Positions 4,144 to 46,689 of a DNA stretch of 64,000 bases are shown in pieces. Each line of letters begins with the position of its first letter. The stretch's first letter is position 1. A program made the position numbers and the translations under genes. The notes below the pieces were generated by a model. The model was not told the DNA's origin. It saw only the letters and a program-made list of their open reading frames with translations, and did no database searches. Location of the stretch: positions 477,084 to 541,083 of the forward strand of contig CAVPBF010000006.1 in the NCBI GenBank assembly GCA_963701845.1. The letters run 5' to 3'. The DNA is from an uncultured delta proteobacterium. Lineage in GTDB: Bacteria; Desulfobacterota; Desulfobaccia; Desulfobaccales; 0-14-0-80-60-11.

Positions 4144-4165
4144 CCTTGCTTCACAGAGGTCCTGA

Positions 4166-21405: not shown

Positions 21406-21423
21406 GGGAGTTTCCTATTATTT

Positions 21424-22317
21424 TCAGGCACCCGCCGTCTCCAGAACCAGGGCCATCAAGTCGCCCCGGCCCCGGGCCTTCACGTAGACGCCGTCCGCGA
21501 GTTTTTCCTCTCTGATCTTTTTGAGCAGGCGGCCGGCCAGAGTCGCGCCCTTCCTTAAAATTTCTTCCTGATCATCTGCAGCCAGTTCTTTGACCACCTG
21601 GTCCGGCAGGGAATATACCTTCCGGTGTTCACCCCGGGCCGCCTGGTCCACTTCCGCGGCCTTAGGCACCTTGAGGCAGGCCAGCAGCTTCACCGTCTGC
21701 GGCTCCAGTGATTGCCGGAATTGACGGAGCTTCTCCAGGTCGAAAACAGGCGCGGTGATAAAAAATTCGGCTCCTGCCTCCAGCTTTTTCCTAACCTTAA
21801 GTTGCTGGGGACCCACCGGGTCGGCCTCAGGGATGAGGACCGCCCCCAGGCAGAAGTTGGGGTGGCCCTGCAGGGGAAGACCGGTGCTATCGTGACCTGC
21901 CATCATTCCCCGGGCAATTTGCAGCAGCTGCACCGAATCGGCGTCATAGACCGGCTTGGCGTCAGGATGATCGCCCAGGCTGACGAAATCGCCGCTCAAC
22001 GCCAAGATATTCTCCAGACCCAGGGCTCCGGCGCCCAGCAAATCGCTCTCCAAGGCCAGGCGGTTACGATCCCGGCAGGTCATGAGAAGCAAAGGTTCGC
22101 CCCCAGCTTCTTTGACCAGCCTGGCCGCGGCCAGGGCCGAGAGTTTCATCTTGGCATGCTCGTTGTCCGGAATCCCGAAGGCAGTCACCTTGCCATTGAG
22201 CGCTTTCAGCGGAGCCAGCATCCCCTCCAGATCGATCCCCTTGGGAGGTTTAATTTCCATCAGGATGGGGAACCGGCCGCCTTCCAAAGCTTCCCTGAGC
22301 TTACTCATGGACCCCAT
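21424..22317 (-). CDS. metF: methylenetetrahydrofolate reductase MetF (acetogen/Hdr-associated type)
   Basis: 297 aa MTHFR fold signatures (FPILMEIKPPKG, LLLMTCRDRNR, ENILALSGD). Directly follows metV. Confidence 0.85.
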   Translation of the reverse strand: MGSMSKLREALEGGRFPILMEIKPPKGIDLEGMLAPLKALNGKVTAFGIPDNEHAKMKLSALAAARLVKEAGGEPLLLMTCRDRNRLALESDLLGAGALGLENILALSGDFVSLGDHPDAKPVYDADSVQLLQIARGMMAGHDSTGLPLQGHPNFCLGAVLIPEADPVGPQQLKVRKKLEAGAEFFITAPVFDLEKLRQFRQSLEPQTVKLLACLKVPKAAEVDQAARGEHRKVYSLPDQVVKELAADDQEEILRKGATLAGRLLKKIREEKLADGVYVKARGRGDLMALVLETAGA

Positions 22318-22981
22318 ATCTCCTCTTATAACCCGGATGGATCACCGTCCCGGGGGTAGTGCCCGCGGCGTGAGGATGGAGCGGCAAGATCGGCTCGATC
22401 TGCCCCAGCCGTCCTGCCTGGGCCAACTTTTCATAAATCTCGCACCAGGCGCAGGCCCGGTCCGGATTGACCTCGCACTTCCCCTGGATGTTGCCGCCGC
22501 AAGGACCGTTGAGCAGCCCCTTGGGACACATGGTTTTCGGGCAAATCCCCCCGGTCACTCCCAGGTAACATTGGTGGCAGGCCCGGCAGCGCTCAGTGTA
22601 ATAGCCCGCGGCCTCGTTGACTCCGATGAAGGTGGTGTTGAGGGCCGGGAAGACCGGTTTCATCTGGGGCAGCGCGGCCAGAAACTGCACCCCGGCGCCG
22701 CAAGCCGTTGAGATAACCGCGTCATAATCAGCCGCGGCGTCGCCCAAGGGCCGGATAAATTCCAGGTCGCACTGGCGCTCCACCGTGATTTCCCCGATCT
22801 TCGGGTGCTTGCCAACTTGTCCCAGGGCCAGCTTCAGTTGCGAGGCCAGCAGGCCCACCTCTTTTTCGCCGCCCGCCAGGCACACCGCCACACAGGTGCC
22901 GCACCCGGCAATGAGGATCTTGTCAAAGGGGGCTACCGCCGCCTTGATTTCCGCAAAAGGTTTCCGCTCCGCGATAATCAT
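22301..22981 (-). CDS. metV: MetV, Cys-rich small subunit of methylenetetrahydrofolate reductase
   Basis: 226 aa with ILIAGCGTCVAVC and the C-terminal Cys cluster CRACHQCYLGVTGGICPKTMCPKGLLNGPCGG typical of the MTHFR C-terminal/MetV domain. ATGA overlap with mvhD. Confidence 0.8.
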   Translation of the reverse strand: MIIAERKPFAEIKAAVAPFDKILIAGCGTCVAVCLAGGEKEVGLLASQLKLALGQVGKHPKIGEITVERQCDLEFIRPLGDAAADYDAVISTACGAGVQFLAALPQMKPVFPALNTTFIGVNEAAGYYTERCRACHQCYLGVTGGICPKTMCPKGLLNGPCGGNIQGKCEVNPDRACAWCEIYEKLAQAGRLGQIEPILPLHPHAAGTTPGTVIHPGYKRRYGVHE

Positions 22982-23439
22982 CCTTGCACCGCCAGTTCTA
23001 GTTCTTCCGGGACCACCGCCCCTGGTTCCCGTATCGACACCAGGGGACTAGGGCCCAGAGCTTTAACTCTGTCAGTCATCTCTTTCACTGCGGCCACCCA
23101 TTTGGGGGCGTCCGAGGCGGCCACCTCATACATGACCAGGCGCTCCGCCCCCAGGCCGCACTCTTCCAGCAGATGCTGGGCGTATTCCACCCGTTCCCGG
23201 GCTCGGAGATTTCCCTCCAGGAAATGGCAACTCCCGGCCTCGCAGCCACTCACCATGATGCCATCGGCCCCGGCCTCAAAGCCCTTCAGGATGTGGATGA
23301 TGTCGATCCGGCCGGTGCACAGGTACTTGACGATGCGCACGTTGGCCGGGTACTGCATCCGGGCCGACCCCGCCATATCCGCGGCCGTGTAGGTGCAGTA
23401 GGTGCAAATCAAGGCCAGTATTTTGGGAGTAAATTCCAT
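22978..23439 (-). CDS. mvhD: MvhD-like [2Fe-2S] protein, Cys form
   Basis: ILALICTYCTYTAADMAGSARMQYPANVRIVKYLCTGRID...ADGIMVSGCEAGSCHF matches the MvhD/FlpD signature. Cys occupies the position that is TGA in the paralog at 38370-38900. Confidence 0.85.
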   Translation of the reverse strand: MEFTPKILALICTYCTYTAADMAGSARMQYPANVRIVKYLCTGRIDIIHILKGFEAGADGIMVSGCEAGSCHFLEGNLRARERVEYAQHLLEECGLGAERLVMYEVAASDAPKWVAAVKEMTDRVKALGPSPLVSIREPGAVVPEELELAVQG

Positions 23440-23448
23440 TTGTTATCC

Positions 23449-26400
23449 TCAACTCCTTGCGCCTAAGTCGACCGCGGGCCAGGGCAGCCCGATGGCCTCA
23501 ATTTTGGCAATGAATTGCTCGTCCAGGTTGTGCTTCACTGCAATGGCCTTCCGGGGGCAGGCGCTGGCGCAGTTGCCGCAGCCCTGGCAGGAGGCGGCGT
23601 CGATGACTACCACTCCTTCGCTTTCATCCATCCTGGGAACCCCGTAGGGGCAGGTGCGCACACAGGTGAGACAGGCGGCGCACTTGAGGGGGTCCACCTG
23701 GGCCACCGCTCCGGCCACGTACATCTCCTCCTGGGACAGAACCCCCAGGGCCCGGGCCGCGGCGCCCTGGGCCTGGGCGAGGCTTTCGTCCAGGAACTTG
23801 GGACCGTGGGCCAAGCCGCACAGGAAGATGCCGCTGGAGGCGAAGTCCAGGGGCCGCAGTTTCAGGTGGGCCTCCATGAAGAAGCCGTCGGCATCGAAAG
23901 GCAGCTTGAATACTTGGGCGATTTGCTGACTCACCGGATGAGGCCGGATGGCCGCGGACAGGACCAGGTAATCGGCCGGAAGGGCCAGGGTTGCCTGCAA
24001 CGACTGGTCGAAGACCGAGACCGTGAGGCCCTGGGCCGTCGCGGCCACTTCGGGTTGGCGGTCAGGCTCAAAGCGCACAAACTGCACCCCCAGGTCCCGG
24101 GCCTGCTTGTAGTAAATCTCCTTCAGGCCATAGGTGCGGATGTCCCGATAGAGGATGAAGACCTGGGCGTCCGGATTGAGCTCTTTGAGGGTAATGGCGT
24201 TTTTGACGGCCTCGCCGCAGCAGGTGCGGCTGCAATACTGGTGCTCCGGTGAACGTGAGCCGACGCATTGGATCATCACTACCCTGGGTGCGGTGTTTAC
24301 AACCTCCGGAGTGTCCGCCAGCAGGTTCTCCAATTCCATTTGAGTCAAGACTCGGGAATCCTGACCATAGAGGTATTCCGCCGGTTTATACTCCTCGCCC
24401 CCGGTGGCGACCACCACCGCGCCGTATTCCACTTCCCGGCGGCCGTCCGCCGATTCCACCGTACTCCGGAATTTGCCGATATGGCCGGAGACGTCCAGGA
24501 CCCGGGTGTTGGGCCACCAATCGATACGGGGATGGTTTTCCACCCGGCGCACCAGCTCCTGGAGATACGGCTGAATTGCATGGCCTTCCAGGGTGCGGCG
24601 CATTTCCCGGGCCAGGCTGCCGCCCAGCCGGTCCTGGGCTTCCGTCAGGTAGACCTGGTAGCCGCCGTCGGCAATGGTCAGGGCGGCCGTCAGGCCGGCC
24701 AGACCGCCCCCCACCACCAGCGCCTTCTGGGTTACCGGGAAGAGCAGGTCGCCCAAAGGCTCGAGGATGGCGGCCCGGGCTACCGACATGCGCACCAGTT
24801 CCCTGGCCTTCTCGGTGGCCAGTTCCGGGGTCCCCTGATGGACCCAGGAGTCCTGGTCCCGGATGTTGGCCATCTCAAACAGGTACTTGTTCAAGCCCGC
24901 CTTGCGCAGATTCTCCTGGAACAGGGGTTCATGGGTCCGGGGGCTACAGGAGGCCACCACGATCCGGTTCAGGTTTTCGGTTTCGATTACCCGGCGCATG
25001 TTGTCCAGAGAATCCGTGGCGCAGGTGAAGGTATAGTGATCGGTGTACACCACGCCAGGGAGCGTGCGGGCGTAATCGGCCACCGCCGCCACGTCCACCA
25101 CCCCGGCGATGTTGATGCCGCAGTGGCAGACAAAGACGCCGATCCGGGGCGCCGCCCCGCTGGTCTCCTTTTCCGGGGGGTAGGCTTCCTTGGTGAGCAG
25201 GGTGCCCCGGGCCTCGGCGAGCAGGGAGGCCGCCGCTCCGGCCGCGCCGGAGGCCTGGGTCACGGTCTCGGGGATATCTTTGGGAGACTGGAAGACGCCG
25301 CAGGTGAAGATCCCTTCCCGGGAAGTGGACACCATCTCCAGCGGCGGGCTCACGGCAAACCCCCAGCGATCCGTGGCGATATCGCAGTTGGCCGCCAGTT
25401 CCCGGGCAGCCGGATGGGGGTTCAGGCCCACCGACAGCACCACCAGGTCAAAGATTTCGGTTTGCAGCTGGCCGGACTCGTCGACGTAATTGAGCTCCAG
25501 ATTATGGCTGCTGGGGTCTTGGGCCACCCGGGAGATCATCGCCCGGATATAGCGCACCCCGTGGTCGGTCTTCGCCCGCTCGTAGTACCGGTCAAAGCCC
25601 TTTCCCTGGGCGCGGAAATCGATGAAAAAGATGGTGGGCTCAATATTATGGTCGTGCTCCCGGGCGATGATGGCCTGCTTGGTGGCGTACATGCAGCAGA
25701 CGTAGGAACAATATTCCCGGCCGCAGGAAGCGTCCCGGGAGCCCACGCACTGGATCCAGGCCACTTTCCGGGGCGGGGCGCCGTCGCTGGGGCGTTGAAC
25801 GTGCCCGCCGTACGGACCGGTAGCCGACAGCACTCGCTCGAACTGTAACGACGTCACGACATTGGGATAGCGGCCGAACCCGTATTCGGGCTTCTGGCCG
25901 GCGTCGAAAGGCCGGAAGCCCGGCGCCAGAATCATGGCCCCCACTTCAATTTGCCGGGTATGGGGCTGCTCCTGATGGTTAATGGCGCCGGCTTGGCAGG
26001 CTGACACACACTGCATGCATTCGGAACACCCGCCGCAATTGAGGCAGCGCGCCGCTTCGGCTAGGGCCTCCTGCCTCGGTAAAGCCCTGGTTGATTTCCT
26101 GAAAGCCCTTGACCCACTCGGCCGGCGGCAACTCCGGCATCACGGCCCGCGGCTTTTTGATGGCGTCGGCCGGCAGCGGAGTCCAATTGCCCTCTGCCTG
26201 GGGAATGGGGCGCAGGGGCAGTTCGCGCCCAGCTTTGAGGTCCTGGCCCTGGAGATAGCGGTCGATGGAGAGGGCGGCTTCCCGGCCCGCGGCCACCGCG
26301 GCGATGGCGATGTAAGGACCGGAGACCACGTCGCCCCCGGCAAAGACGCCCTCCCGGCTGGTGGCCAGGGTGTCCGGATCCGCCTCGATCAGGCCGCGGG

Positions 26401-27928
26401 GAGTGAGTTTGATGCCATCCGCGTCAGTGATGAATTTGAGGTTGGTCCGCTGGCCGATGGCCAGGATGACGATATCGGTGCTCCGAGTAGTGGTTTGATC
26501 TTCCAGATAGGTGGGAGCGAAGCGCCCTTGCGCATCAAAGACCCGTTCCACGGCCCTGAGTTCGAGGCCGCTGACCTTGCCCTCCCGAGCCAGGATCTGC
26601 TTGACGCCCCACCGGTGGCTGATCTCGATGCCTTCCTGCTCGGCCTCCGCCACTTCCCAGGAGGAAGCCGGCATCTCTTCCCGGGTTTCGAGCGAGATCA
26701 AGGTGACCTCGCCCCCCTGGCGCCGGGCCGTGCGGGCCACGTCCATGGCCACGTTGCCGCCGCCGACGACCGTCACTTTTTGGCCCTGGAAATCGAACTT
26801 TTGACCCGAGGCCGAGTCTTTGAGATATTCGACGCCCCAGAGGACTCCCTGGGCGTCCGCGCCGGGCACCGGCAGGCGGATGGAGTCTTGCGCCCCGACG
26901 CCCAGGAAGACCGCCCGGAAGCCTGCGGTGGTGAGCAGATCGTTGATGGTGCGGCCGGGGCCGCCGATGGGGGAGTTATAGTTGATCTGCACCCCCAGGC
27001 GCTGGATGTAGTCCACTTCCCGTTGCAGGACATCCTTGGGCAGGCGGTATTCCGGAATGCCGTAGCGCAGCCAGCCGCCGGCCGCCGCGGCGGCCTCGAA
27101 GATCACCGCCTGATAGCCTTGGAGGGCGAGATGATAGGCGCAACTTAAACCGGACGGCCCGGACCCGATAATGGCCACGGCCTCGGAGCGCTCAGGCACC
27201 TCGGGCACCGGCAGCGTCTGCCAGTCCACCGCATCGGCCACAAAGCGCTTCAGGCTGCAGATGGCCACGGGTTCGTCCACTTCCTGGCGCCGGCAGTCCG
27301 TCTCGCAGGGATGGGGGCAGATGCGGCCGATGGTGCCGGGGAGCGGCAGCCGGTCCAGGATGAGGGACAGGGCCTCGGGAAATTTCCCGGCCTTGATGAG
27401 CTGCACATAGCCCTGCACGCTCAAATTCGCCGGACAGCCACGCACACAGGGCCCCCGATCCAGTTTCTTGATGGCAAAGGTGGCCGGGATCGCCTGGGGG
27501 AAGTGCCGGTAGGCGGCATGGCGCACGCCCAGGCCTGCATCGAAAGACGAAGGCAGTTCCACCGGGCAGGCCTCGGCGCAGGCCCCGCAGGCGTTGCACT
27601 TGGCCCGGTCGATGTAACGGGGCTCCCGGCGGAGGGTGACGGTGAAACGGCCCGCCTCGCCTGCCACCGCGGCCACCTCGGACTGGGTGATGATCTCGAT
27701 GTCCGGGTGCCGGGCCACCTCGATGAGCTTGGGGGAGATCAAGCAGGTGGAGCAATCGTTGGTGGGGAAGGTCTTGTCCAACTGGGCCATGACCCCGCCG
27801 ATGGAGATGTCTTTCTCCACCAGATAGACCTTGAAACCCGCATTCGCCGCGTCCAGGGCGGCCTGCATGCCGGCGATGCCGCCCCCCACCACGGAAATGG
27901 CGCCGATTTTGGTGTGGTCAGTGGGCAT
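23449..27928 (-). pseudogene. hdrA: giant HdrA-GltD/NfnB-like-HdrA fusion (HdrL-like), Cys form, one frameshift as sequenced
   Basis: ORFs 25979-28138 and 23449-26016 are collinear with the intact paralog at 42146-46609. Start [22 protein letters not shown] at 27928 (TAATG junction with hdrB). Motif TNDCSTCLISPKL. The junction reads FTEA / EALAEAARCLNCGGCSEC, and deleting one G of GCAGGAGG (about 26070) restores the frame. The first ORF ends in TAA, so this is not a Sec codon. Confidence 0.85.
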
Positions 27929-28782
27929 TACAGCAATCCTTTTTCCTGCAGTAACGGCCGGGGGTCCACCAAATGGCGGGCGAGCCAGCCCTCTGCCTCC
28001 GGGTGCCCCAGGGCCAAGCCGATCAGCTCGGTAAAATAGAACACCGGCAGATAATAATTTTTGCCCAACTTCTTGGAGATACGCGCCTGGGATAGATCGA
28101 GGTTGGCCTGGCACATCTGGCAGGCGACCACGAAACACTCCGCCCCGGCTGCCAGGGCCCGGTCATAGAGACGGCCTACCAGCGTCTCGATGATATCCGG
28201 CCGGGACATAGACAAACCGGCACCGCAGCAGTCGGTCTTGTAGGACCAGTCGAGGGGCTCGGCCTGCAGGATCTGAAGCAAGCGCTCCAAATCTTTGGGG
28301 TTTTCCCAATCCGCTTTATCCGTGATCGCCGGCGGCCGGGAGGCCAGGCAGCCGTAATAACCCACGGCTTTCAGGCCGGTCAGGGGCCGTACCAGCTTCC
28401 GGCCCAGGCTGGACAGAAATGACTCCTGGGTCAGAAAGTCCAGCAGGTCCCAGATCTTGATGTTTCCCAGGGTCTCTTCCCGGCCCTGCTGCGCCTTTTC
28501 GGCGGCCTTGAGCCGGTTGAAGCACAGGGCGCACGGCACCACTACGTCCCGCCCTTGCTCTCGGGCCAGGGCCAGATTGCGGGCCGGAAGCTCGAGAGAG
28601 AGCTGATGATTGAGGCTGTGCGCGGCACTGGCGCCGCAGCAGTTCCAATCTTCCAGTTCCGCCAACTCCAGACCCAGCAAGGGAGTGACGGCGGCGATGG
28701 AAGCGGCGTAATCCGCCGCGGTGCCTTCCAGGGAACAGCCCGGATAATAGGATACTTTCATGAGTTTACTTAAGCCCCGCAC
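27928..28782 (-). CDS. hdrB: heterodisulfide reductase subunit B-like (two CCG domains)
   Basis: KVSYYPGCSLEGTA, NCCGASAAH, GYYGCLASRPP and TDCCGAG are CCG-domain signatures. The start may instead be the internal MKVSYY at 28761. Confidence 0.85.
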   Translation of the reverse strand: MRGLSKLMKVSYYPGCSLEGTAADYAASIAAVTPLLGLELAELEDWNCCGASAAHSLNHQLSLELPARNLALAREQGRDVVVPCALCFNRLKAAEKAQQGREETLGNIKIWDLLDFLTQESFLSSLGRKLVRPLTGLKAVGYYGCLASRPPAITDKADWENPKDLERLLQILQAEPLDWSYKTDCCGAGLSMSRPDIIETLVGRLYDRALAAGAECFVVACQMCQANLDLSQARISKKLGKNYYLPVFYFTELIGLALGHPEAEGWLARHLVDPRPLLQEKGLL

Positions 28783-29383
28783 GGTGAAAAATAGCTTTGA
28801 TCTCCCCCCGCCCTTTGAGGGCGGGCGGGCCGACCGGACGCAGACGGCCGCGTCTGAACAGGGCCCAGCCGAGCTTAGAATTTTCCCAGAGTTCCTTGAT
28901 TTGCGGCCGGCGCCAGAGTTTAAACAGGGTAAAGCGTCGCATCAACGCCACTTCAGACAAGCGCCCCCCGGCCCGGCGCAGGCTTTCCAGGAAGAAGCGA
29001 TGGAAGGCTGCGACCTCCGGCTGGGAGATGGCCTTCCCCTGCCGGATCGCCTCCTCCTTGAGCCAGTCCATGACCCCGGCGATGTCGATGCCATTGGGGC
29101 AGCGAGTGCTGCAGGTGACGCAGGCGGCGCAGACCCAGATGGTCCGGCAATTCAGGAGCGTTTCGGTCTGCCCCAGGAGGGCCAGCCGGATGACCCGGTC
29201 CGGGAGCAAATCCATGGCAAAGGTCAGGGGACAGCCGGCGGAACACTTTTTACATTGAAAACAGGAGGACACCGGCAGGGCGGCTTCCTTGGCCAGGCGC
29301 TCCGGTAAGGAAAACGAAGGAAGCACCGGTTGATTTAGGTTGATTTCCATTAAGATCGGCTCCTGTTGTTGAGAGATCTCCAT
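28766..29383 (-). CDS. hdrC: heterodisulfide reductase subunit C-like (2x[4Fe-4S])
   Basis: CFQCKKCSAGCP and CAACVTCSTRCP motifs with an HdrC-like helical body. The start is probably the second ATG (29350), which follows AGGAG. Confidence 0.8.
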   Translation of the reverse strand: MEISQQQEPILMEINLNQPVLPSFSLPERLAKEAALPVSSCFQCKKCSAGCPLTFAMDLLPDRVIRLALLGQTETLLNCRTIWVCAACVTCSTRCPNGIDIAGVMDWLKEEAIRQGKAISQPEVAAFHRFFLESLRRAGGRLSEVALMRRFTLFKLWRRPQIKELWENSKLGWALFRRGRLRPVGPPALKGRGEIKAIFHRAGLK

Positions 29384-29463
29384 CTATTGCCTGCTATTCC
29401 CGTCAGGGCTTAATCCCGGTGCCTTTACTGAGAGATACTCATTTCTGCTTGGAATGGAATTAA

Positions 29464-29478
29464 GCAAGGCATATGCCA
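29464..29478 (-). promoter_or_regulatory. sigma54 (-24/-12) promoter for the hdrC-led operon
   Basis: The minus strand reads TGGCATATGCCTTGC (TGGCAT-N5-TTGC), one mismatch to TGGCAC-N5-TTGC, about 100 nt upstream of hdrC. Confidence 0.6.
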
Positions 29479-29556
29479 AGTCCCACGTATTACCCCTAAG
29501 TGGTTATTTTTACAAACATATGGTCATTAATGCCCTAAAGCTCAGACTCTCTCAGT

Positions 29557-29573
29557 TGTCGGATAATCCCACA
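29557..29573. promoter_or_regulatory. candidate enhancer (UAS) dyad, site 1
   Basis: TGTCGGATAATCCCACA (TGT-N11-ACA around a GGATAATCC core), about 80 nt upstream of the minus-strand sigma54 promoter. Confidence 0.5.
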
Positions 29574-29622
29574 AAAACTGGGCAGAACCATTTAACTGAC
29601 TGATATTAAAACTTTTTTAAGT

Positions 29623-29639
29623 TGACGGATAATCAGACA
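29623..29639. promoter_or_regulatory. candidate enhancer (UAS) dyad, site 2
   Basis: TGACGGATAATCAGACA, flanked by TT..AA like site 1. Confidence 0.45.
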
Positions 29640-29827
29640 ATTCAACATAATACTATACCCCCGTCAGGTATATTGGTACTTTTAAATTAATTTTAAATAC
29701 TTATCTGAATTATTCAGGGCCAGACTGTCAAAAGGCCTTACCCTCAGGCCATCTCCGATCGTAGGAATATGCGACATATTAGTATTCTTAATAATTTCAA
29801 TATGATATCCAACTAATCAGCAATGTC

Positions 29828-29844
29828 TGTGGATTTATCCGACA
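29828..29844. promoter_or_regulatory. candidate enhancer (UAS) dyad, site 3
   Basis: TGTGGATTTATCCGACA, whose reverse complement is TGTCGGATAAATCCACA. About 90 nt upstream of the plus-strand sigma54 promoter. Confidence 0.5.
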
Positions 29845-29934
29845 AGCTGCCGAGGGCAGCAATATTAGTGCCGATCCTGATTTAATATAAAAATTAATAT
29901 AAAATTCCAGTGGTTACATTGCATGGCCAGTGAT

Positions 29935-29949
29935 TGGCACATTCATTGC
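29935..29949 (+). promoter_or_regulatory. sigma54 (-24/-12) promoter for the GcvH-like gene pair
   Basis: TGGCACATTCATTGC is an exact TGGCAC-N5-TTGC. AAGGAGGGG RBS at 29971-29979 and ATG at 29987. Confidence 0.7.
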
Positions 29950-29986
29950 TTTCTTTTAGGTCAAACCTCAAAGGAGGGGCGAGCTG

Positions 29987-30622
29987 ATGAACAACTTTAC
30001 GAAAATTACCAAAATGGTTGAGGTCTTCGGTTTTCAAGTCCCCGCCGACACTTATTATTTACACCGGGGCCATGCCTGGGCCAGGCTGGAAAGCGAGGAT
30101 CAGGTGCGGGTGGGCCTGGACGACTTTTCCCAAAAAATTCTGGGTCCGGCGGACGGGATCAAGTTACCCGAAGTCGGCAAGGTCTATTACCAGGATCACC
30201 TCTGCCTGGCCCTGATGAGGCAGGGGCGGAAGGCCTCCTTTGAGGCGCCCGTGGATGGCGCCATCGAGGCCGTCAACCCGAAAGTGCGCGATAACCCCAG
30301 CCTGGTTCACGACGACCCTTATGGGGAAGGCTGGATCTGTTTAATGAAACCGGTCAATCTCCAGCGCAATCTGGAACACCTGTCCTCCGGCGCAGCCAAT
30401 GTCGCCTATATCGATGCAGAGTCCCACCGGTTGATGCATCTCATGGACACCCGGGTCGGTTTCACCCTGCCGGACGGCGGCGCCATCGTCGATGACGTTT
30501 ACGGCCATTTTCAGGAGTTAGGCTGGCGGCCCCTGGTGCAGGAATTTTTCCTGCAAAACCTGACCAAAAAGGGTTTCCTGCCGGTGGCGAAATGGCAGAA
30601 GTCTAAGACAGCCGTGAGATAA
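29987..30622 (+). CDS. GcvH-like protein (subtype 2) with a conserved C-terminal extension; lipoyl-Lys position is Gly
   Basis: [28 protein letters not shown]-22 aa-APVDG and DDPYGEGW align without gaps to the E. coli GcvH core, with RQGRKA replacing ESVKAA. The extension reads AYIDAESHRLMHLM...[18 protein letters not shown]. Confidence 0.75.
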   Translation: MNNFTKITKMVEVFGFQVPADTYYLHRGHAWARLESEDQVRVGLDDFSQKILGPADGIKLPEVGKVYYQDHLCLALMRQGRKASFEAPVDGAIEAVNPKVRDNPSLVHDDPYGEGWICLMKPVNLQRNLEHLSSGAANVAYIDAESHRLMHLMDTRVGFTLPDGGAIVDDVYGHFQELGWRPLVQEFFLQNLTKKGFLPVAKWQKSKTAVR

Positions 30623-30693
30623 GCGGACCGGGGGGTGATCTCCCGGAGCCCTGTCTTGCGGTGGCAGAGCGTTAACCTAAGGGGTATGATTCA

Positions 30694-31572
30694 ATGGAAA
30701 AACCAGGTATCGAGGAGAAAAAGCCCTGCATCTGGATGGAAGCCGGGGTGATCGATTTCAAGATTTGCAATCATGATTTCGATTGTCTATCTTGCGATTT
30801 CGACCGGGTCATGAGTGAAACCGCGGCCCAGCATCCGGCCAGCCGCCCAGGCGGTGGACCGGTAGACCAGCCGGCTGCTCTGCCCCCCTGGGAGGGGAAA
30901 ATGCGGCAACGCTTCGAGGGGCAGCAGCAGTGCCGACTCATGCAGACCCGGCATTGCCACGAGTGTTCCTTCGATGAACTCCTGGAGGATCAATTTGAAT
31001 TCTTTCTGGCCCCGGAAAGACCCAGGGTGCAGGAGGTTTTCGGCATTGCGGTGCCGACCTCCAACTTTCTGCATCGGGGCCATACCTGGGTGGCCCTGGA
31101 GAACGCCGGCCGGGTCCGCATCGGCCTGGACGACTTTGCCGTGAAGGTCCTGGGGCCGCCGGATAAAATCAGCCTGCCTGACGTCGGGAAGGAGATTCAC
31201 TCCGATGAGGTGGCTCTGGTTCTATCCCGCCGCGGGAAAAAGGCCGCGGTCCTGGCGCCCCTCAACGGCGTCATCGAGGCAGTGAATCCCCAGATCCGGC
31301 AAAAGCCCGGTTTGACTCATGATGACCCCTACGGCGAAGGCTGGCTGTTCGTCGTCACCCCCAGCAATCTCAAAGCGGACCTGGAAAAAATGCTGTTTGG
31401 CCAGTGCAATGTCGCCTGGATCGACCACGAATCCCACCGACTGCTGGGCATGCTGGAAGCCGCCGCGGGCGTGACGCTGCCTTCCGGGGGAGTGATCATC
31501 GATGACGTCTTCGGCGCCTATCCGCAACTGGGCTGGAAGCGCCTGGTGCAGGAGTTTCTCCATAGCGCCTGA
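30694..31572 (+). CDS. Cys-rich N-terminal domain fused to a GcvH-like domain (subtype 1)
   Basis: N-part CIWMEAGVIDFKICNHDFDCLSC and CRLMQTRHCHEC. C-part LHRGHTWVALE...DDPYGEGW...GGVIIDDVFGAYPQLGW. It ends in EFLHSA, like the fusion protein at 17231 (EFLRSA). Confidence 0.75.
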   Translation: MEKPGIEEKKPCIWMEAGVIDFKICNHDFDCLSCDFDRVMSETAAQHPASRPGGGPVDQPAALPPWEGKMRQRFEGQQQCRLMQTRHCHECSFDELLEDQFEFFLAPERPRVQEVFGIAVPTSNFLHRGHTWVALENAGRVRIGLDDFAVKVLGPPDKISLPDVGKEIHSDEVALVLSRRGKKAAVLAPLNGVIEAVNPQIRQKPGLTHDDPYGEGWLFVVTPSNLKADLEKMLFGQCNVAWIDHESHRLLGMLEAAAGVTLPSGGVIIDDVFGAYPQLGWKRLVQEFLHSA

Positions 31573-31710: not shown

Positions 31711-33057
31711 TTAATGGGTGAGTCCGTATTTCTTGATTTTCTCGTAGAGCGTGGAACGGTTGATGCGCAGAACCCGGGCGACGTTGGAGAGGTTGCCGCC
31801 TTTGGTGGCCAGGAGCTGGGCGATATGTTGGCGCTCCAGTTCCTCCAGGGATAACTCTCCGAATTCCAGCGCCTCATTGGTCGCCCCAAAGGGCAGGTCG
31901 CTGCATTTGATCTGCCGGCCTTTCCCCACGACGACCGCCCGTTCTATGGCGTTTTCCAGCTCCCGGACGTTTCCCGGCCAGGAATACCGCTGCATCGCTT
32001 CCATGGCCTTCGGATGGATGGAGTCGATCTTCTTTTTGGTCTCGGTGGCGTAGCGTCGCATGAAATGTTGTGCCAGCAAGGGAATATCTTCCAGCCGCTC
32101 CCGCAAGGGCGGCACCTGGAGATGAATGACGTTCAGGCGATAGAACAGATCCTGTCGAAAGGTTTTGCGCCGAATGGCTTCCTGGAGGTCTTGGTTAGTG
32201 GCGGCGATGACCCGAAAATCGCTGCGTAACTGGACAGTTCCCCCCACCCGGGTGAATTCCCGGGTCTCCAGGACCCGGAGCAGGTCGATCTGCATCTTCA
32301 TGGAGATGTCGCCCACCTCATCCAGGAAGAGAGTCCCGGCGTGCGCCATTTCCAGGCGACCTTTCTTGGTATATTTGGCGTCGGTGAAGGCGCCTTTTTC
32401 GTGTCCAAAGAGCTCGCTTTCCAGGAGCTGTTCCGTAAAGGCCCCACAGTTGATGGCAATGAAGGGGGCATAACACCGGGGACTCTGCGCATGGATGGCC
32501 CGGGCCACCAGTTCTTTGCCGGTACCGGTTTCCCCGGTGATCAAGATAGTGGCATCGCTCTGCGCCACATCGACAATGGTTTCGAACAGCTGCACCATAA
32601 CCGGTGACTGGCCCACCAGGTTTTCAAAGCGGGTGATAGTCGCCAGCCGCTCTTTTAAAACCAGATTCTCCATCGCCAGGTTTTGCATCTGGACCAGTTT
32701 TTCAACGGTAAAACTGAGTTCCTCCAATTCGAAGGGCTTGAGCAAATAGTCATAAGCGCCCAGCTTAATAGCTTCCACGGCGTCATGGATATCGCCGTGC
32801 GCCGTCATCATGAGGACGTTGGTCTCGATCTCGCTTTCCTTGAGTTTCTTAAGCAGGGTCAGGCCGTCCATCTCCGGCATTTTGACGTCGATGAGCAGGA
32901 TATCATAGCGATTTTCCCGGATCTTGGCCAATGCCGCGACCCCGTCTTCGGCGGTTTCCACCTCGTAGCCGCCCCTTTTCAGCCAGGCGCTCAGAGATTC
33001 GCGGATGCTCAGTTCGTCATCCACCACCAGGATGCTGATCTTGTTATGGGGCGACAC
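31711..33057 (-). CDS. sigma54-dependent response regulator (NtrC family): REC, AAA+, Fis-type HTH
   Basis: GTG start at 33057 after GGGAGAAGAAA. ILVVDDELSIRE receiver domain. GETGTGKELVARAIH Walker A. GAFTDA replaces the canonical GAFTGA. C-terminal HTH NVARVLRINRSTLYEKIKKYGL. Confidence 0.85.
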   Translation of the reverse strand: MSPHNKISILVVDDELSIRESLSAWLKRGGYEVETAEDGVAALAKIRENRYDILLIDVKMPEMDGLTLLKKLKESEIETNVLMMTAHGDIHDAVEAIKLGAYDYLLKPFELEELSFTVEKLVQMQNLAMENLVLKERLATITRFENLVGQSPVMVQLFETIVDVAQSDATILITGETGTGKELVARAIHAQSPRCYAPFIAINCGAFTEQLLESELFGHEKGAFTDAKYTKKGRLEMAHAGTLFLDEVGDISMKMQIDLLRVLETREFTRVGGTVQLRSDFRVIAATNQDLQEAIRRKTFRQDLFYRLNVIHLQVPPLRERLEDIPLLAQHFMRRYATETKKKIDSIHPKAMEAMQRYSWPGNVRELENAIERAVVVGKGRQIKCSDLPFGATNEALEFGELSLEELERQHIAQLLATKGGNLSNVARVLRINRSTLYEKIKKYGLTH

Positions 33058-35317
33058 TTTCTTCTCCCGGTTTAAAGGCGGGCAGACGGACTGTAAAGGA
33101 GGTCCCGTGCCCCACGACACTGTCCACTTTGATGGAGCCCTTGTGGTCCCGGACAATACCATAAACCACGGAGAGCCCCAAGCCTGCACCGGAGCAAGTC
33201 TTTTTCGTGGTAAAGAAGGGTTCGAAGATCTGGGAAAGATTTTCCTTAGGAATACCTTTCCCGGTGTCGGAGACCTTCACCACCACTTGATGGCGTCGGG
33301 AATTCTTCGTCTCCAGGGTGAGAGCGCCCCCCTGCGGCATAGCGTCCTGGGCGTTTAGGAAGAGATTCAAAAAGGTCTGTTTCATCTGTCCCTTATCCGC
33401 CAAGACCGGGAGCAGGTCCGGAGCCAGTTGGCGGTTCACGGTGATGCCTTGCAGCCGCATTTGGTACCCGGTAAGAGACAAGGTCTCCTCTACTACCGCG
33501 TTGAGGTCCACCGGTTCGAAATCCGGGCTGGTCTTACGGGAAAAAGCCAGAAGGTTGGCAACCGTTCGGCTGACCCGGGAGGTCTCACTATGGATCATCG
33601 TGAGATAACGGCGGATATTAGCCAAATCCTCCTCGCCCGGGGCCCCCTCCTTCAGCATGCTTTCCATCAATCTGACGAAGTTGAGTATACCGGTCAGCGG
33701 GTTATTGATTTCATGCACCACGCTGGCGGACAGCTTCCCCAAAGAGGCCATCTTGTCGTCATGGAGCAGCCGCGTGCGGGAGTTGATCTCCTGGGTGATA
33801 TCCCGGGACAGATCAACAACTTGATGAATCCGTCCTGCTTCATCATACAGCGGGTGACAGACCACGTGATAATAACGCTCGCGGCCTTCCCGGTCGAAGT
33901 GCACATGCGTGGCTGAGGCTGCCTTGCCCGTAGCCACCGCCTCTTTTAAAGGACAGGGATGATCAGGAGTGGTGCATGGTTCCTGCAAGTGGTGCGACAC
34001 CTCATAACAGTGTCTGCCCACCACTTCCTGCCATTTTAGACCCACCATCTTCAGCAAGGCCCGGTTGACTTCGATAATTTTATAGTCCAGGTCGATCACC
34101 ATCATGTGATCCTCAATGCCGTTGACAATGGTCTCAAGAAAGTCCTTCCCCTTTTTTGCCCTTTCCTCGGAACTTTTCAGCGCCTCTTCCAACTGCATGC
34201 GGGGGCTGATATCTTTGATAACCTCGATAACTCTTTTTTTGGTACCTTCCGGCGGGCACAGGGGCGACATGGTAATTTCATCATACCGGATGGTGCCGTC
34301 GGGATTGGGGAAGCCTTGCAAACCCTGGACGGTCTCACATTTTTCTAAAACGGTCGGCAAGGGACAGGGCAGGCCTTTCCGGTCGCAGGGCTCATCAAAC
34401 TGATGAAACACTTCATAACAAGGTTTGCCGATGACCTCATCCGCCTGTTTGTGGAAGCGGTTCAGAAAAGGAAGATTGGCCTCTTCCACCAGATAATTGG
34501 GTTTCAGTACCAGCACCGGATCCGGAAGGTGGTCGAAAATTCCCTGAAAGCGGTTGCGTTGGCCGGCCAACCTGATTTCACTCTCTACCTTGCTGCGCAG
34601 CCGGTCTTCCTCCCGGTGCAATAAATCCCAGAAGAGACGCGCCTTGATGTGGTCGATGATCTGAGTGTGCGGGCCCTTCCGCTGGATGATTTTATCCCGC
34701 ACCTCCGGGTCCCCGGTGAGTTCCAGGATAAGATCCGGATTCGACTCCCGGATGGGAGCTAAATCGGTAAAGGTCGGTATACCCAATTCTTTGGCCAGAA
34801 TGACACCCTGGGCCTGGGGGTTGGGATCGGCCACCCAGATGATTTCGATTCTCCGCCGGTAACGCGGTTCTCCGGAAATAAGTTTGAGAACCTCGTGACC
34901 GCCTTTACCTCCCCCCACGATGCCGATTCTCAACGGGGTAGCTTCTTGAACAGAGCTAAGATCCATGGAGATGAGGTCCCAGAAGTCCTCCCAGGAAAGG
35001 GGACGATCGACATTGAGGACCATCAATCTCGCGGGGCGCTGTTCGTCTAATTGTTTAGAGACTTCCGGGTGGCCGGTGGCGTTGACGATGATGTCTAATT
35101 CGGGGAGTTGGAATAAGTCAGTGAAATCGATGGTGACAAAAAGGTTATGCCGGTAAGCATAGACGATGCCGCGAGCATACGGGTTCAGATCCGCTACTCC
35201 CACGACGCGCAAGGGCTGGTCATCCCGGCGGAGAGGCACCAGGGCCTCCAGGATGGCCATACCTTGACGGCCCGCACCCACCAGGGCCAGATTATAGAAC
35301 GGCTTGCCGGGACTCAT
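33044..35317 (-). CDS. cytoplasmic sensor histidine kinase: two Rossmann-like GxGxxG modules, two Cys/His-rich PAS domains, HisKA, HATPase
   Basis: LALVGAGRQGMAIL and IGIVGGGKGGHEVL. PAS segments with CYEVFHQFDEPCDRKGLPCPL and CYEVSHHLQEPCTTPDHPCPL. H-box SVVHEINNPL. ATPase motifs DTGKGI and GAGLGL. No TM segment seen. Confidence 0.8.
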   Translation of the reverse strand: MSPGKPFYNLALVGAGRQGMAILEALVPLRRDDQPLRVVGVADLNPYARGIVYAYRHNLFVTIDFTDLFQLPELDIIVNATGHPEVSKQLDEQRPARLMVLNVDRPLSWEDFWDLISMDLSSVQEATPLRIGIVGGGKGGHEVLKLISGEPRYRRRIEIIWVADPNPQAQGVILAKELGIPTFTDLAPIRESNPDLILELTGDPEVRDKIIQRKGPHTQIIDHIKARLFWDLLHREEDRLRSKVESEIRLAGQRNRFQGIFDHLPDPVLVLKPNYLVEEANLPFLNRFHKQADEVIGKPCYEVFHQFDEPCDRKGLPCPLPTVLEKCETVQGLQGFPNPDGTIRYDEITMSPLCPPEGTKKRVIEVIKDISPRMQLEEALKSSEERAKKGKDFLETIVNGIEDHMMVIDLDYKIIEVNRALLKMVGLKWQEVVGRHCYEVSHHLQEPCTTPDHPCPLKEAVATGKAASATHVHFDREGRERYYHVVCHPLYDEAGRIHQVVDLSRDITQEINSRTRLLHDDKMASLGKLSASVVHEINNPLTGILNFVRLMESMLKEGAPGEEDLANIRRYLTMIHSETSRVSRTVANLLAFSRKTSPDFEPVDLNAVVEETLSLTGYQMRLQGITVNRQLAPDLLPVLADKGQMKQTFLNLFLNAQDAMPQGGALTLETKNSRRHQVVVKVSDTGKGIPKENLSQIFEPFFTTKKTCSGAGLGLSVVYGIVRDHKGSIKVDSVVGHGTSFTVRLPAFKPGEESVAP

Positions 35318-35401: not shown

Positions 35402-37444
35402 TCATCCTTCCACCAATTTCTCCACTCGAGCCTTGCCGACCTTGAACTCCGGAATCTTGGCCAGGGGGTCCACGGCTGCGGAGTTAGTCAGCACATTCGG
35501 GGGATTCTCGCCGAAATGGATGGGGAGAAAGAGGTTGCCAGGCAGTACTGACTGAGTGATTTTGGCCGGGGCCTCAATGCGGCCCCGCAAGGAGGAAATC
35601 ACCAGGATCTCGCCATTTTTTACTGCCAGCCGGCCGGCGTCTTCCGGGTTGATTTCCACGTAGCCGGTGGGCTGCTCCCGGTCCAGGGCCGGTGACACCC
35701 GGGTCATGGTGCCGGTGTGGTAATGGGCGAACATCCTGCCGGTGGTCAAGAAATAGGGGTATTCGGCGTCCGGCATCTCCGCCGGGTCCTGGTACTGGAC
35801 CGCATGCAGCTTGCCTAAGCCCCGGGTAAATCTGTCTCGGTGCAAAAATTTCGTGCCTGGATGGTCGGCGGTGGGGCAGGGCCATTGCAACCCGTCGATC
35901 CCCAACCGGGCATAAGTCATGCCAGCATAACTGGGCGTCAAGGCTGCCATCTCCCGGAAGATCTCCTCCGGGCCGGCGTAGGACATGGGATAGCCCATGG
36001 CGGTGGCCAGCCGGCAAATGATCTCCCAATCGGGCAGGCTGTGGCCCACCGGCTCGACGGCCTTATTGAGACGCAGGCAGCGCCGTTCGGTGTTGGTGAA
36101 GGTGCCGTCTTTCTCCGCCGAGGCCGCCGCGGCCAGGACCACATCGGCCCCTTGGGCCGTTTCCGACAGGAACAGGTCCTGGACGATCAAGAGATCGAGC
36201 TTTTTCATGGCATGGCGAAGGTGATTCATGTCGGGATCACTCAATTTCGGATTTTCGCCCACCACATAGAGGGCCTTGAGTTGGCCCGCGTCAATGGCCT
36301 TCACCATATCCGGGATGGTCAGCCCGGGTTTGTCGGGCAGCGGCCGGCCCCAGGCCTGGGAAAATTTGGCGTTGAGGTCGGGATTGGCCACCGGCTGATA
36401 GCCGGAAAAGACGTTGGGCAGTCCGCCCATATCACAGGCGCCCTGGACGTTGTTCTGACCGCGCAGGGGGTTGACCCCGGCGCTGGCGATGCCCACGTTG
36501 CCGGTGAGCATGGCCAGGTTGCAGACCGCCTTGACGTTGTCCACCCCCGTGGTGTGCTGAGTGATGCCCATGGCATACAACAGCGCGGCCGGCCGGTGCG
36601 TGGCGTACAGCTCGCTCATCTTTTCCAGGTCCCGGGGGTTGACGCCGGTGATCTGCTGAACCCGCTCCGGCGTATAAGCCGCCAGGGATTCCCGCAGCTC
36701 CTCGAACCCTTCGGTGCGGCCAGCGATATAGTCCTTCGCCTCCCAGCCGTTGGTTAGAATCAGGTGCATCATGCCGTTGAGCAGGGCCACGTCGCTGCCC
36801 AGCCTCTGGTTGACGGCCACGTCGGCAAAGAGGCCCAACTGAATCCGGCGGGGATCGGCCACGACCAATTTGGCCCCTCTTTCTTTGGCGCGCAAAATCC
36901 GCCGGGCGATGAGGGGATGGCAAGCCGAGGTATTGGAACCGATGATGAAGATGCAGCCGGCCTCTTCGATCTCGGCGATGGAGTTGGTCATGGCCCCACT
37001 CCCAAAGGCGGCGGTAAGACCTACCACCGTCGAGGAGTGTCAGAGACGGGCGCAGTGGTCGACATTGTTGGTGCCGACCACGGCGCGGGCGAATTTTTGC
37101 AGGAGATAATTTTCTTCATTGGTCACCTTGGCCGAAGCCAGCACCCCGACGCTGTCCGGGCCGTGCTTGGCGATCACGGCCTTGAGCTTTTCGGCGGTAA
37201 ACTTGAAGGTCCGCTCCCAGGTGACCTGGTGGAGGCGGCCGCTGATCCTCAAGCGGGGCGACTGCAGGCGCATGCCGCTGTTGACGTACTCATGCAGGTT
37301 CCAACCCTTGATACACAATTTTCCCTGATTCACGGGGTGGGTCTTGAGAGGCAGGGTGCCCAGGAGCCGGCCGTCCAGCACCTTGAAGAGCACCCCACAG
37401 CCCGTGCCGCAATAAGAACATACCGATGGAACAAGTTTATACAT
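35402..37444 (-). CDS. fdhA: formate dehydrogenase catalytic subunit, selenocysteine-containing, cytoplasmic
   Basis: ORFs 37040-37444 and 35402-37027 are in one frame, joined by the TGA at 37040-37042 in the context NNVDHCARL-U-HSSTVVGL. N-terminal CSYCGTGCG cluster, no Tat signal. SECIS-like hairpin directly downstream. Confidence 0.9.
36997..37039 (-). promoter_or_regulatory. bacterial SECIS element of fdhA
   Basis: The mRNA reads CACUCC UCGA CGGUGGUA GGUCU UACCGCCG CCUUUG GGAGUG. It forms an 8 bp upper stem with a GGUC-containing apical loop, like the E. coli fdhF SECIS, plus a 6 bp lower stem. Confidence 0.7.
37040..37042 (-). other. in-frame TGA read as selenocysteine (FdhA)
   Basis: CARL-TGA-HSS is the conserved active-site Sec/Cys position of formate dehydrogenases. 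Confidence 0.85.
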
Positions 37445-37471
37445 GACTTCTCTCCAGGCTGCGACGCCCCA

Positions 37472-38290
37472 TCAGACCGCTTCCCGATGGGCTTCGGCGG
37501 GCGCGGGAGCACTCTCGCCCAGCAGGCTGAAGGGCGGTTGCTCCCGGCTGAGGCCGGTTTCGTAACCAAACAGGTCTTGGACGATTTCGTTGCTCTTGCG
37601 GTACAACAGCCGCAAGGGGATGTCCACCGGACAGGCATCTTCGCACAAGCCGCAGTCAATGCAGCGGCCCGCCATATGCACGGCCCGGATGAGATGGAAC
37701 AATGGCACCTCCGGCGGCACCCCGCCGGTTTCCACCAGATCCCCGTGTTCCAGGGAGCATTCCTTGCAGAAGCACACCGGACAGATGTCCCGGCAGCCAT
37801 AACATTTCAGGCATTTTTGGAATTCATACATCCACTTATCAAACCGCGTCCCTTCCGCAAATTCTTCCAAGCGGGCTACTGACATATTGTTGTCGATCCC
37901 CAGCTCCAGCTTCACTTTCCCATAGGTCCGGGGCGCAAGAGTGGAGCAATCCGCGTGTTTCTTGAGCGGCGAAGGACAGCAATTGACCCCCAGGACCTCG
38001 ATCTGGCCGGGAGTGATTTGTTGATGCACCGCCAGGACATTCAGGGCCCGTTGGTTGCAGTCGCGGCCCAAAATGCCGAGTTTGAGGCCCGGCTGCTCCG
38101 CCAGGATCTCGACTGCCAGCTTTTCCAGGGGATAGCGGGCCTCACTGACCATTAACTCAGCCAATTCTCCGAGGTTGTCGCGATCAAAGGCGTACGGCAA
38201 GGGATGCCCCTCAACCAGTTTATAGCCCAGGAAGAGGTCTACCTTGCCGGTATCCAGCCACTGGCGCACCGTTTCTGTTATATCAGCCAT
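37472..38290 (-). CDS. 4Fe-4S dicluster electron-transfer protein (AsrA/sulfhydrogenase-beta-like), putative FDH partner
   Basis: 272 aa with CLKCYGCRDICPVCFCKEC and CIDCGLCEDACP motifs. Located between mvhD(Sec) and fdhA. Confidence 0.5.
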   Translation of the reverse strand: MADITETVRQWLDTGKVDLFLGYKLVEGHPLPYAFDRDNLGELAELMVSEARYPLEKLAVEILAEQPGLKLGILGRDCNQRALNVLAVHQQITPGQIEVLGVNCCPSPLKKHADCSTLAPRTYGKVKLELGIDNNMSVARLEEFAEGTRFDKWMYEFQKCLKCYGCRDICPVCFCKECSLEHGDLVETGGVPPEVPLFHLIRAVHMAGRCIDCGLCEDACPVDIPLRLLYRKSNEIVQDLFGYETGLSREQPPFSLLGESAPAPAEAHREAV

Positions 38291-38308
38291 ATCAGTTATC
38301 CCATGCAG

Positions 38309-38373
38309 GGTGCGCGCCGCGCACCATTTTCAATCTTTGATTTGAACAAGTTGGTGCGCAGTGCGCACCCTAC
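38309..38373. repeat. two REP-like palindromes inside the operon
   Basis: GGTGCGCGCCGCGCACC (38309-38325) and GGTGCGCAGTGCGCACCCTAC (38353-38373). The second overlaps the mvhD stop codon at 38370-38372. Confidence 0.8.
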
Positions 38374-46609: not shown

Positions 46610-46689
46610 ACAATTCTCCTCTTCTGAACTCAGGTTACCGAGGCCCATGGCCCCGGGCCAGGCGGTTAGCTCCCAACATGCTGAATCCC

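Follow-up and report, generated by a model that had tools for sequence, protein, structure and literature searches.

A probable sigma-54 enhancer switch between divergent Hdr/MetF and GcvH-like operons, adjoining a two-component regulator, in an uncultured Desulfobaccales bacterium

The window analysed here is a stretch of 64,000 nucleotides (64 kb) of contig CAVPBF010000006.1 from an uncultured delta proteobacterium (GenBank assembly GCA_963701845.1, positions 477,084 to 541,083), which comparison with related loci assigns to the Desulfobaccales; all positions below count from its first letter. An AT-rich gap at 29384-29986 separates two divergent gene strings: hdrC (28766-29383, minus strand) leads a series of Hdr- and MetF-type genes, and a pair of GcvH-like genes follows on the plus strand, adjoined by genes for a response regulator and a histidine kinase. 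A sequence-only reading of the gap had described it as a control region with back-to-back sigma-54 promoters and three copies of a TGT-N11-ACA dyad, placed at the distances that are typical of bacterial enhancer-binding proteins (EBPs) and embedded in DNA that would favour bending or the binding of integration host factor (IHF). All strings quoted in that reading were located in the sequence.

Two elements of the -24/-12 type stand in the gap, and a third one, which had been missed, lies elsewhere in the window:

29463-29479, minus strand: P1, sigma-54 -24/-12 element TTGGCATATGCCTTGCT (GG at 29476-29477, GC at 29464-29465; predicted start ~29452)
29934-29950, plus strand: P2, sigma-54 -24/-12 element TTGGCACATTCATTGCT (predicted start ~29961)
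47654-47670, minus strand: P3, sigma-54 -24/-12 element CTGGCACATCCTTTGCT, facing GcvH-like gene 3 (predicted start ~47643)

The core of P1, TGGCATATGCCTTGC (29464-29478, minus strand), points towards hdrC and fits 10 of the 11 specified positions of TGGCAC-N5-TTGCW; the core of P2, TGGCACATTCATTGC (29935-29949, plus strand), points towards GcvH-like gene 1 and, like P3, fits all 11 (GG to GC 10 nt). All three promoters are intergenic and correctly oriented, with predicted 5' untranslated regions of ~70 nt for hdrC, ~26 nt for gcvH1 and ~50 nt for gcvH3. The pattern TGGCAY-N5-TTGCW occurs three times in the 64 kb, where 0.14 matches are expected, and none of 100 shuffles reached three. Scoring with a weight matrix, which the sequence-only reading had proposed as a check, gave 32.2 for P2, 27.0 for P1 and 25.9 for P3, well clear of the next best score in the window (11.2); the matrix was trained on 20 promoters, none of them from the window. 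The back-to-back arrangement therefore stands, both elements of the gap matching the consensus and facing genes at plausible distances. A further sigma-54 candidate in the control region (29858-29874, minus strand; CGGCAC..TTGC) was discarded: it is outside the top 10 matrix matches and is disrupted in the related locus L001.

Upstream of each promoter lie two dyads, a proximal and a distal one, listed here with the distance of the dyad centre from the GG of the -24 element and the dyad matrix score:

29556-29574: S1, proximal dyad of P1, TTGTCGGATAATCCCACAA (centre 29565, 88 nt from the P1 GG; score 25.0)
29622-29640: S2, distal dyad of P1, TTGACGGATAATCAGACAA, TGA-N11-ACA (centre 29631, 154 nt from the P1 GG; score 15.1)
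29827-29845: S3, proximal dyad of P2, CTGTGGATTTATCCGACAA, inverted (centre 29836, 100 nt from the P2 GG; score 21.6)
29759-29777: S5, distal degenerate dyad of P2, TCGTAGGAATATGCGACAT, CGT-N11-ACA (centre 29768, 168 nt from the P2 GG; score 12.1)
47749-47767: S4, proximal dyad of P3, ATGTCTGATAATCCAACAA on the plus strand (centre 47758, 90 nt from the P3 GG; score 18.9)
47815-47833: S6, distal degenerate dyad of P3, CCGTTGTAATTTCCAACAG on the minus strand, CGT-N11-ACA (centre 47824, 156 nt from the P3 GG; score 13.5)
29882-29904, plus strand: tandem duplication TTAATATAAAAA/TTAATATAAAA of 12 nt in the P2 spacer, absent from the closest relative, L001

The six dyads thus form three pairs, one per promoter, with a centre-to-centre spacing of 66 bp (P1), 68 bp (P2) and 66 bp (P3), and the idealized sequence is palindromic over 19 bp, TTGTCGGAT-A-ATCCGACAA. 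A search with the S1 19-mer, allowing up to 3 mismatches, returned four sites in the window against 0.01 expected; together with the strict promoter search it exposed the third module at 47.65-47.83 kb. When scored with a matrix trained on 32 dyads, none from the window, the six sites reach 12.1-25.0, and the next best sequence reaches 4.1. The three sites of the sequence-only reading are all present, with bounds drawn 1 nt too wide on each side; S1 and S3 are TGT-N11-ACA dyads as described, but S2 reads TGA-N11-ACA, and the total rises to four, in two pairs, with S5, which had been overlooked and is kept as a CGT-type site in the related loci L001, L004, L005 and L024. The enhancer-like distances were correctly recognized, the dyads of the control region lying 88-168 nt from the GG. 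That the proximal dyad of P2 is 100 nt instead of 88 nt from its promoter results from the 12-nt tandem duplication, which also yields two A-tracts 12 nt apart.

The GC content falls to 0.33-0.39 across 29500-29999, compared to 0.61 for the window, as had been noticed; the AT-rich centre of the control region is not kept in relatives, being GC-rich in L024. At 29677-29698, in the middle of the region, an AT-only 11-nt tandem repeat, TACTTTTAAAT/TAATTTTAAAT, is also palindromic and is likewise not kept in L024. The suggestion of bending was followed up by searching for IHF-like elements:

29593-29605, minus strand: IHF-consensus-like TATCAGTCAGTTA, a perfect match to WATCARNNNNTTR, midway between S1 and S2; missed by the sequence-only reading
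29795-29807, plus strand: weak IHF-like TTTCAATATGATA, 2 mismatches, midway between S5 and S3
47687-47699, minus strand: IHF-like TATCAGCTATATA, 1 mismatch, between S4 and P3

The first of these recurs in orthologous modules at the same position and in the same orientation, and the orthologue of the second in L001, AATCAGTATGATA, has 1 mismatch. Within the window alone the idea finds little backing: a strict IHF consensus, WATCAANNNNTTR, has no match in the 64 kb, the inter-dyad elements of P2 and P3 have 2 mismatches each, and a looser consensus occurs once in the three dyad-to-promoter spacers, against 0.56 expected. The comparison across loci, on the other hand, speaks for it. Among 19 dyad pairs, 4 enclose a perfect match (0.21 expected) and 11 a match with at most 1 mismatch (3.8 expected), and 11 of 19 dyad-to-promoter spacers also contain an IHF-like sequence with at most 1 mismatch (2.9 expected), although the shuffles behind these expectations overstate significance, the loci being related. 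In most pairs the best inter-dyad match sits at a relative position of 0.45-0.48, and 18 of the 19 share one orientation. A DNA bend between the paired dyads is therefore a plausible reading of the sequence, with about even odds.

Other features of the control region are few. Sigma-70-like promoters are not enriched in 29300-30050 (3 matches versus 2.5 expected), terminators were not found in the same interval, and an Rfam scan of 29200-30200 gave no match at E values up to 1. The small open reading frames (ORFs) of the region encode only 25-49 residues, overlap promoter or dyads, and were judged spurious. One sigma-70-like sequence, TTGACG-18-CATAAT (10 of 12 positions; 29622-29651, plus strand), overlaps S2 and may be due to chance or serve as a basal promoter open to occlusion by the regulator; its hexamer is not conserved, the counterpart in L024 reading ATGTTGGAAATTTCCACAA.

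The same module recurs in related loci, both those retrieved from genomes around gcvH and those retrieved from metagenomes around hdrC. A -24/-12 element with upstream TGT-N11-ACA dyads precedes gcvH1 in 10 of 11 gcvH-anchored loci, and regulator and kinase genes are syntenic with the GcvH-like gene in 9 of the 11; among ~75 usable hdrC-anchored loci, the module was found in 8. The P1 element is kept in L012, L018, L024, L034 and L041, and L024 reproduces the full divergent layout of the window. If a composite is defined as a sigma-54-like element with a dyad 65-215 nt upstream, 25 such composites occur in 506 kb of fetched DNA, compared to 0-3 in shuffles and 4 in a mirror-image control. Alignments of P1-type and P2-type modules have invariant columns on both dyads and on the -24/-12 element, against a mean identity of only ~60%. 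When the core is relaxed slightly, 20 of 21 promoters have both dyads, the proximal one at 73-108 nt and the distal one at 141-173 nt from the -24 element on its upstream side, and the spacing between the two is 64-69 bp in most loci and 75-79 bp in three. The loci L001 (beside a tRNA-Asn gene), L012 and L013 have a single module and one pair at the same distances, and the two modules of L024 are ~500 bp apart, separated by GC-rich DNA. Since single-module loci such as L001 and L012 keep one pair, each promoter is predicted to have its own dyad pair, and there is apparently no single shared cluster.

Not every relative conforms. In L011 (CAWCOX010000009.1, 1-12467), which encodes the regulator and kinase as well as three GcvH-like proteins, neither a sigma-54 element nor a dyad was matched in 12.5 kb. 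The gcvH genes of L011 follow HdrL-like and HdrB-like genes within an extended gene string on one strand, and their promoter may lie beyond the fetched DNA. Moreover, several module-bearing hdrC loci have no regulator within 3 kb; there, the regulator would need to work in trans, unless some other protein were to bind the dyads. Just upstream of the hdrC module of L013, L019, L021 and L023, a receiver-domain-like stretch was observed (30-40% identity to regulator residues 1-120), which could be a stand-alone CheY-like gene.

The best candidate for the protein that binds the dyads is encoded next to the control region, together with a partner kinase:

31714-33057, minus strand: candidate cognate activator, an NtrC-family response regulator of 448 residues (REC, sigma-54 AAA+ domain with GAFTDA loop, HTH_8)
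33044-35317, minus strand: partner PAS histidine kinase with two Cys-rich PAS-type regions, HisKA and HATPase_c

The regulator, which had also escaped the sequence-only reading, is the sole sigma-54 activator found in the window; its gene lies 1.7 kb from the control region, where it immediately follows the P2 unit in the opposite, convergent orientation. Its Pfam matches include Sigma54_activat (E = 5e-70) and HTH_8 (E = 8e-13), and the GAFTDA loop, found in 119 of 120 regulator homologues, is among the loop variants that retain activator function and is the variant of OrpR (Kazakov et al., 2015; PMC4641369). Its closest PDB structures are NtrC-family proteins, with the ZraR structure 1ojl among the best. 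An assignment to a named equivalog (AtoC, NtrC, ZraR, GlrR, NtrX or NifA) was rejected, as the regulator is under every NCBIfam cut-off: it scores 499 of the 714 bits required for AtoC, the best model, and 441/559, 434/760 and 367/763 for NtrC, ZraR and GlrR, respectively.

The kinase has no membrane or hydrophobic segment, and its N-terminal 378 residues have no significant homologue in the PDB. It contains two CYEV-x-H-x5-PC-x6-C motifs, kept in all six orthologues examined, which are possible ligands of an Fe-S cluster or a metal, and two GxGxxG motifs of the nucleotide-binding type, of which the one at residue 16 is present in all six orthologues and the one at residue 137 is absent in 2 of them. 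With 277 bits, it is far below the cut-off of the AtoS-type NCBIfam model (646). Cys-rich PAS domains that bind Fe-S clusters have precedents in OrpR and NreB, and for this reason one may reasonably guess that the signal is intracellular and redox-related; the conserved Cys-rich regions and the nucleotide-binding-type motifs suggest a redox or cofactor signal from the cytoplasm as kinase input, which is the weakest step of the model.

Taken together, these features point to a sigma-54 enhancer switch in the AT-rich gap, which would serve the divergent Hdr/MetF and GcvH-like operons and be operated by the adjoining two-component regulator; we put the probability of this reading at roughly 80%. 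The EBP-type enhancer of the sequence-only reading is thereby upheld, in that promoters, dyad distances, a nearby activator and a conserved composite all agree. In upstream-to-downstream order, a module would consist of the distal dyad, ~47 bp with an IHF-like element, the proximal dyad, a spacer of ~80-90 bp, and the -24 TGGCA(C/T)/-12 TTGC element; the control region would comprise two such modules, independent and back to back, and a third copy would lie at 47.65-47.83 kb. The sequence features with their statistics and conservation, and the genes around them, are observed; start sites, bound protein, bending and signal are predicted. The proposed sequence of events begins with the cytoplasmic PAS kinase, which would phosphorylate the response regulator. 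Regulator dimers would then bind the paired TTGTCGGAT-A-ATCCGACAA-type dyads via the Fis-type HTH and form an AAA+ ring, probably assisted by bending between the dyads and between dyad and promoter. Finally, the ring would contact the closed complex of the sigma-54 holoenzyme and drive promoter opening with ATP. As output, hdrCBA-mvhD-metVF with the downstream genes, the GcvH-like pair, and the GcvH-like/HdrL/HdrA/MvhD/Fdh unit would be switched on together.

Several observations weigh against this reading. Besides the lack of IHF enrichment in the window's own spacers and the relatedness of the loci in the cross-locus statistics, these are the occurrence of the module in only 8 of ~75 hdrC loci, the lack of any match in L011, and the module-bearing hdrC loci without a regulator within 3 kb. 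Both distal sites S5 and S6 are degenerate, with CGT in place of TGT, and the dyad-to-GG distances show no significant helical phasing (Rayleigh P ~0.15-0.3). The regulator is assigned by adjacency only, and the presence of sigma-54 is assumed, as rpoN is not among the genes of the 64-kb window.

EBPs work at a distance and in either orientation, and S1 and S2 are only ~300-370 nt from P2, with S3 and S5 similarly far from P1; the four dyads of the control region could thus form one bidirectional enhancer shared by both promoters. This is quite unlikely in view of the single-promoter loci L001, L012 and L013, which keep a single pair at the usual distances, of the GC-rich DNA between the modules of L024, and of P3, which has its own pair. 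Very improbable, too, is a role of the dyads as operators of a redox repressor such as Rex on sigma-70 promoters, with the sigma-54-like strings being incidental. Rex does bind a TTGT...ACAA palindrome and control energy-metabolism genes, and a sigma-70-like sequence overlaps S2. However, none of the six dyads fits the 18-bp operator TTGTGAANNNNTTCACAA within 3 mismatches, their half-site spacing is odd (N11) rather than even, sigma-70-like matches are at background, and the hexamer overlapping S2 is not kept in L024. The dyads, moreover, lie upstream of the -24 element and do not cover it, and the composite is specific to this upstream orientation (25 versus 4 in the mirror control). That the whole pattern arose by chance in AT-rich intergenic DNA and has no regulatory role is scarcely credible: such DNA does lift the background of TGT/ACA and TTGC strings, and once the threshold is lowered to 9 of 11 positions the 154 sigma-54-like matches are no commoner than in shuffles (117-160), but strict promoters and dyads far exceed expectation (3 versus 0.14 and 4 versus 0.01), matrices from other genomes single out precisely these sites by a large margin, and the blocks are conserved amid drifting flanks.

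A further alternative retains the enhancer and exchanges the activator: another EBP, encoded elsewhere, would bind the dyads, and the adjacent response regulator-histidine kinase pair would control something else. An assignment by adjacency alone invites this objection, as do the hdrC modules without a nearby regulator and the regulator and kinase of L011, for which no module was found, and several unrelated EBPs share TGT-N11-ACA-type motifs (Kazakov et al., 2015; PMC4641369). It is nevertheless unlikely: the gcvH genes bear the module in 8 of the 9 genome loci in which the regulator-kinase pair is syntenic, the adjacent regulator is the only EBP found in the 64 kb, and co-localisation usually picks out the cognate EBP (PMC4641369).

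The genes placed under the three promoters belong to the following units:

17231-29383, minus strand: P1 unit, inferred from Pfam matches and tight gene spacing
29987-31572, plus strand: P2 unit, GcvH-like gene 1 (29987-30622) and GcvH-like gene 2 (30694-31572)
35402-47592, minus strand: P3 unit (inferred), whose transcription may extend into the kinase and regulator genes

The P1 unit runs in the order hdrC, hdrB, an hdrA-like gene (719 residues), a second hdrA-like gene (855 residues), mvhD, metV and metF, followed 18 nt after metF by an HdrA-like ORF (20170-21405) and an ORF for a fusion protein (17231-20233, minus strand); no promoter or terminator was matched in 20100-21500, between metF and these downstream genes. 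The fusion protein of 1000 residues combines Fer4, FlpD/MvhD, molybdopterin dinucleotide-binding and GcvH-like domains, its N-terminal ~490 residues having no Pfam match, and it both ends the hdrC-metF gene string and provides the fourth GcvH-like module of the window. The P3 unit comprises GcvH-like gene 3, an HdrL-type GltD/HdrA fusion (1362 residues), an HdrA-like gene (944 residues), MvhD, a Fer4 protein and FdhA. Two genes of this unit contain an in-frame TGA, fdhA at 37040-37042 (minus strand; HCARL*HSS) and mvhD at 38673-38675 (minus strand; VAG*HLGDCHY), and are each split in two by mechanical ORF calling for this reason; both codons occupy what are, by their predicted context, classic selenocysteine positions. 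The gap between fdhA and the kinase gene is 85 nt and has no hairpin terminator, and read-through from P3, hence positive autoregulation of the regulator genes, appears possible.

In each of the three sigma-54 units, a GcvH-like module occurs together with HdrA, HdrCB, MvhD, MetVF or Fdh genes. The stand-alone paralogues (29987-30622, 30694-31572 and 46690-47592) have 211, 292 and 300 residues, all score under the NCBIfam GcvH cut-offs, and the product of gene 2 is extended at its N-terminus by a Cys-rich stretch. When the three are aligned with GcvH of T. thermophilus and E. coli, their conserved Lys (RQGRKAS and similar) falls 1-2 residues behind the canonical lipoyl-lysine, and this offset makes lipoylation uncertain. 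It is a doubtful though conceivable proposition that bacterial Hdr-type complexes have dedicated redox partners in these atypical GcvH-like proteins, which might even serve as the second electron acceptor or donor of the HdrCBA-MvhD-MetVF methylene-tetrahydrofolate reductase, whose second redox partner is an open question (PMC8760232). If this were true, the kinase with its Cys-rich PAS regions would tune the whole set to the cytoplasmic redox state, but co-regulation is not proof of a shared reaction. The regulatory mechanism is textbook and adds no new principle; the content of the regulon is the more interesting lead. As a compact set it ties GcvH-like proteins to Hdr-type complexes and offers a lead on the reaction partners of HdrCB and MetVF-Hdr, and the promoters, six candidate sites, candidate regulator and kinase constitute a concrete model of how Hdr/MetF/Fdh electron transfer might be switched in uncultured Desulfobaccales.

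Two observations elsewhere in the window may be recorded. Its best Rex-operator-like sequence, ATGTTAAAACATTCACAA (54805-54822, plus strand; 2 mismatches), is flanked on one side by an ORF of 169 residues with an RsbRD_N domain (54271-54780, minus strand) and on the other by a short ORF beginning at 54842 on the plus strand. At 83-7530 on the minus strand, a type II secretion/type IV pilus-like cluster (PilN, T2SSK, N_methyl pseudopilin, GspH, T2SSF, T2SSE) is encoded, which is unrelated to the control region.

Well-studied two-component and EBP systems provide the frame for this comparison. At glnAp2 and at NifA upstream activating sequences, a 17-bp or 16-bp dyad, respectively, is bound by NtrC or NifA, and two sites 100-150 bp upstream are required to nucleate the oligomer for ATP-driven opening of the closed sigma-54 complex; the dyads of glnAp2 are ~32 bp apart, compared to 66 bp here. 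The NifA site itself (TGT-N10-ACA), to which the sequence-only reading had compared the dyads, was rejected as a model, given that all sites here are N11 and that the regulator is under the NifA cut-off and has no GAF domain. In E. coli, the NtrC-family regulator of the ZraSR two-component system binds between the back-to-back sigma-54 promoters of zraP-zraSR. One divergent unit of that system encodes the regulator, whereas the regulator genes of the window are not directly behind P1 or P2, so that positive autoregulation would need read-through from P3. The domain architecture of AtoSC fits that of the regulator and, for the kinase, that of its C-terminal half, but the N-terminal ~380 residues of the kinase have no counterpart in it, and its targets are unrelated.

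On the side of the targets, HdrL/MvhD/Fdh clusters are known from Desulfobacterium autotrophicum, and the source paper describes no regulation of them; no paper was found in the literature that links sigma-54 or a sigma-54 regulator to hdr, metF or GcvH-like genes. The sites have closer relatives. In Desulfovibrio, groups of EBP motifs with TGT/ACA half-sites at a distance of 9, 11 or 12 bp recur, and regulator-promoter co-localisation is a standard inference for EBPs (Kazakov et al., 2015; PMC4641369). The TGT-N11-ACA group of the Desulfovibrionales in particular shares half-sites, spacing and the logic of inference (promoter, co-localised EBP, palindrome) with the present case, which differs in the order concerned (Desulfobaccales) and in the target genes: the D. 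vulgaris regulons described there make no mention of hdr, glycine cleavage or formate dehydrogenase (PMC4641369).

The closest parallel in layout is the orp1/orp2 locus of Desulfovibrio vulgaris Hildenborough with its regulator OrpR (DVU2106), where divergent sigma-54 promoters likewise share one intergenic region (PMC3897727; PMC8359166; PMC4641369). Palindromic EBP sites lie upstream there too (orp -88 and -131), and OrpR resembles the candidate regulator in being encoded at the locus and in having a GAFTDA loop. The two systems diverge in the details of their wiring: the orp IHF sites are located between EBP site and promoter, whereas an IHF-like element is found between the paired dyads here, and each orp promoter has a single palindrome (GGGCGYRTTTTGCGCCC) in place of the TGT-N11-ACA pairs ~66 bp apart. 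OrpR is a one-component EBP that senses via its own Cys-rich PAS domain, while the candidate activator of the window is a two-component response regulator; and the predicted targets, unlike those of the orp locus, are Hdr, MetF, Fdh and GcvH-like genes.

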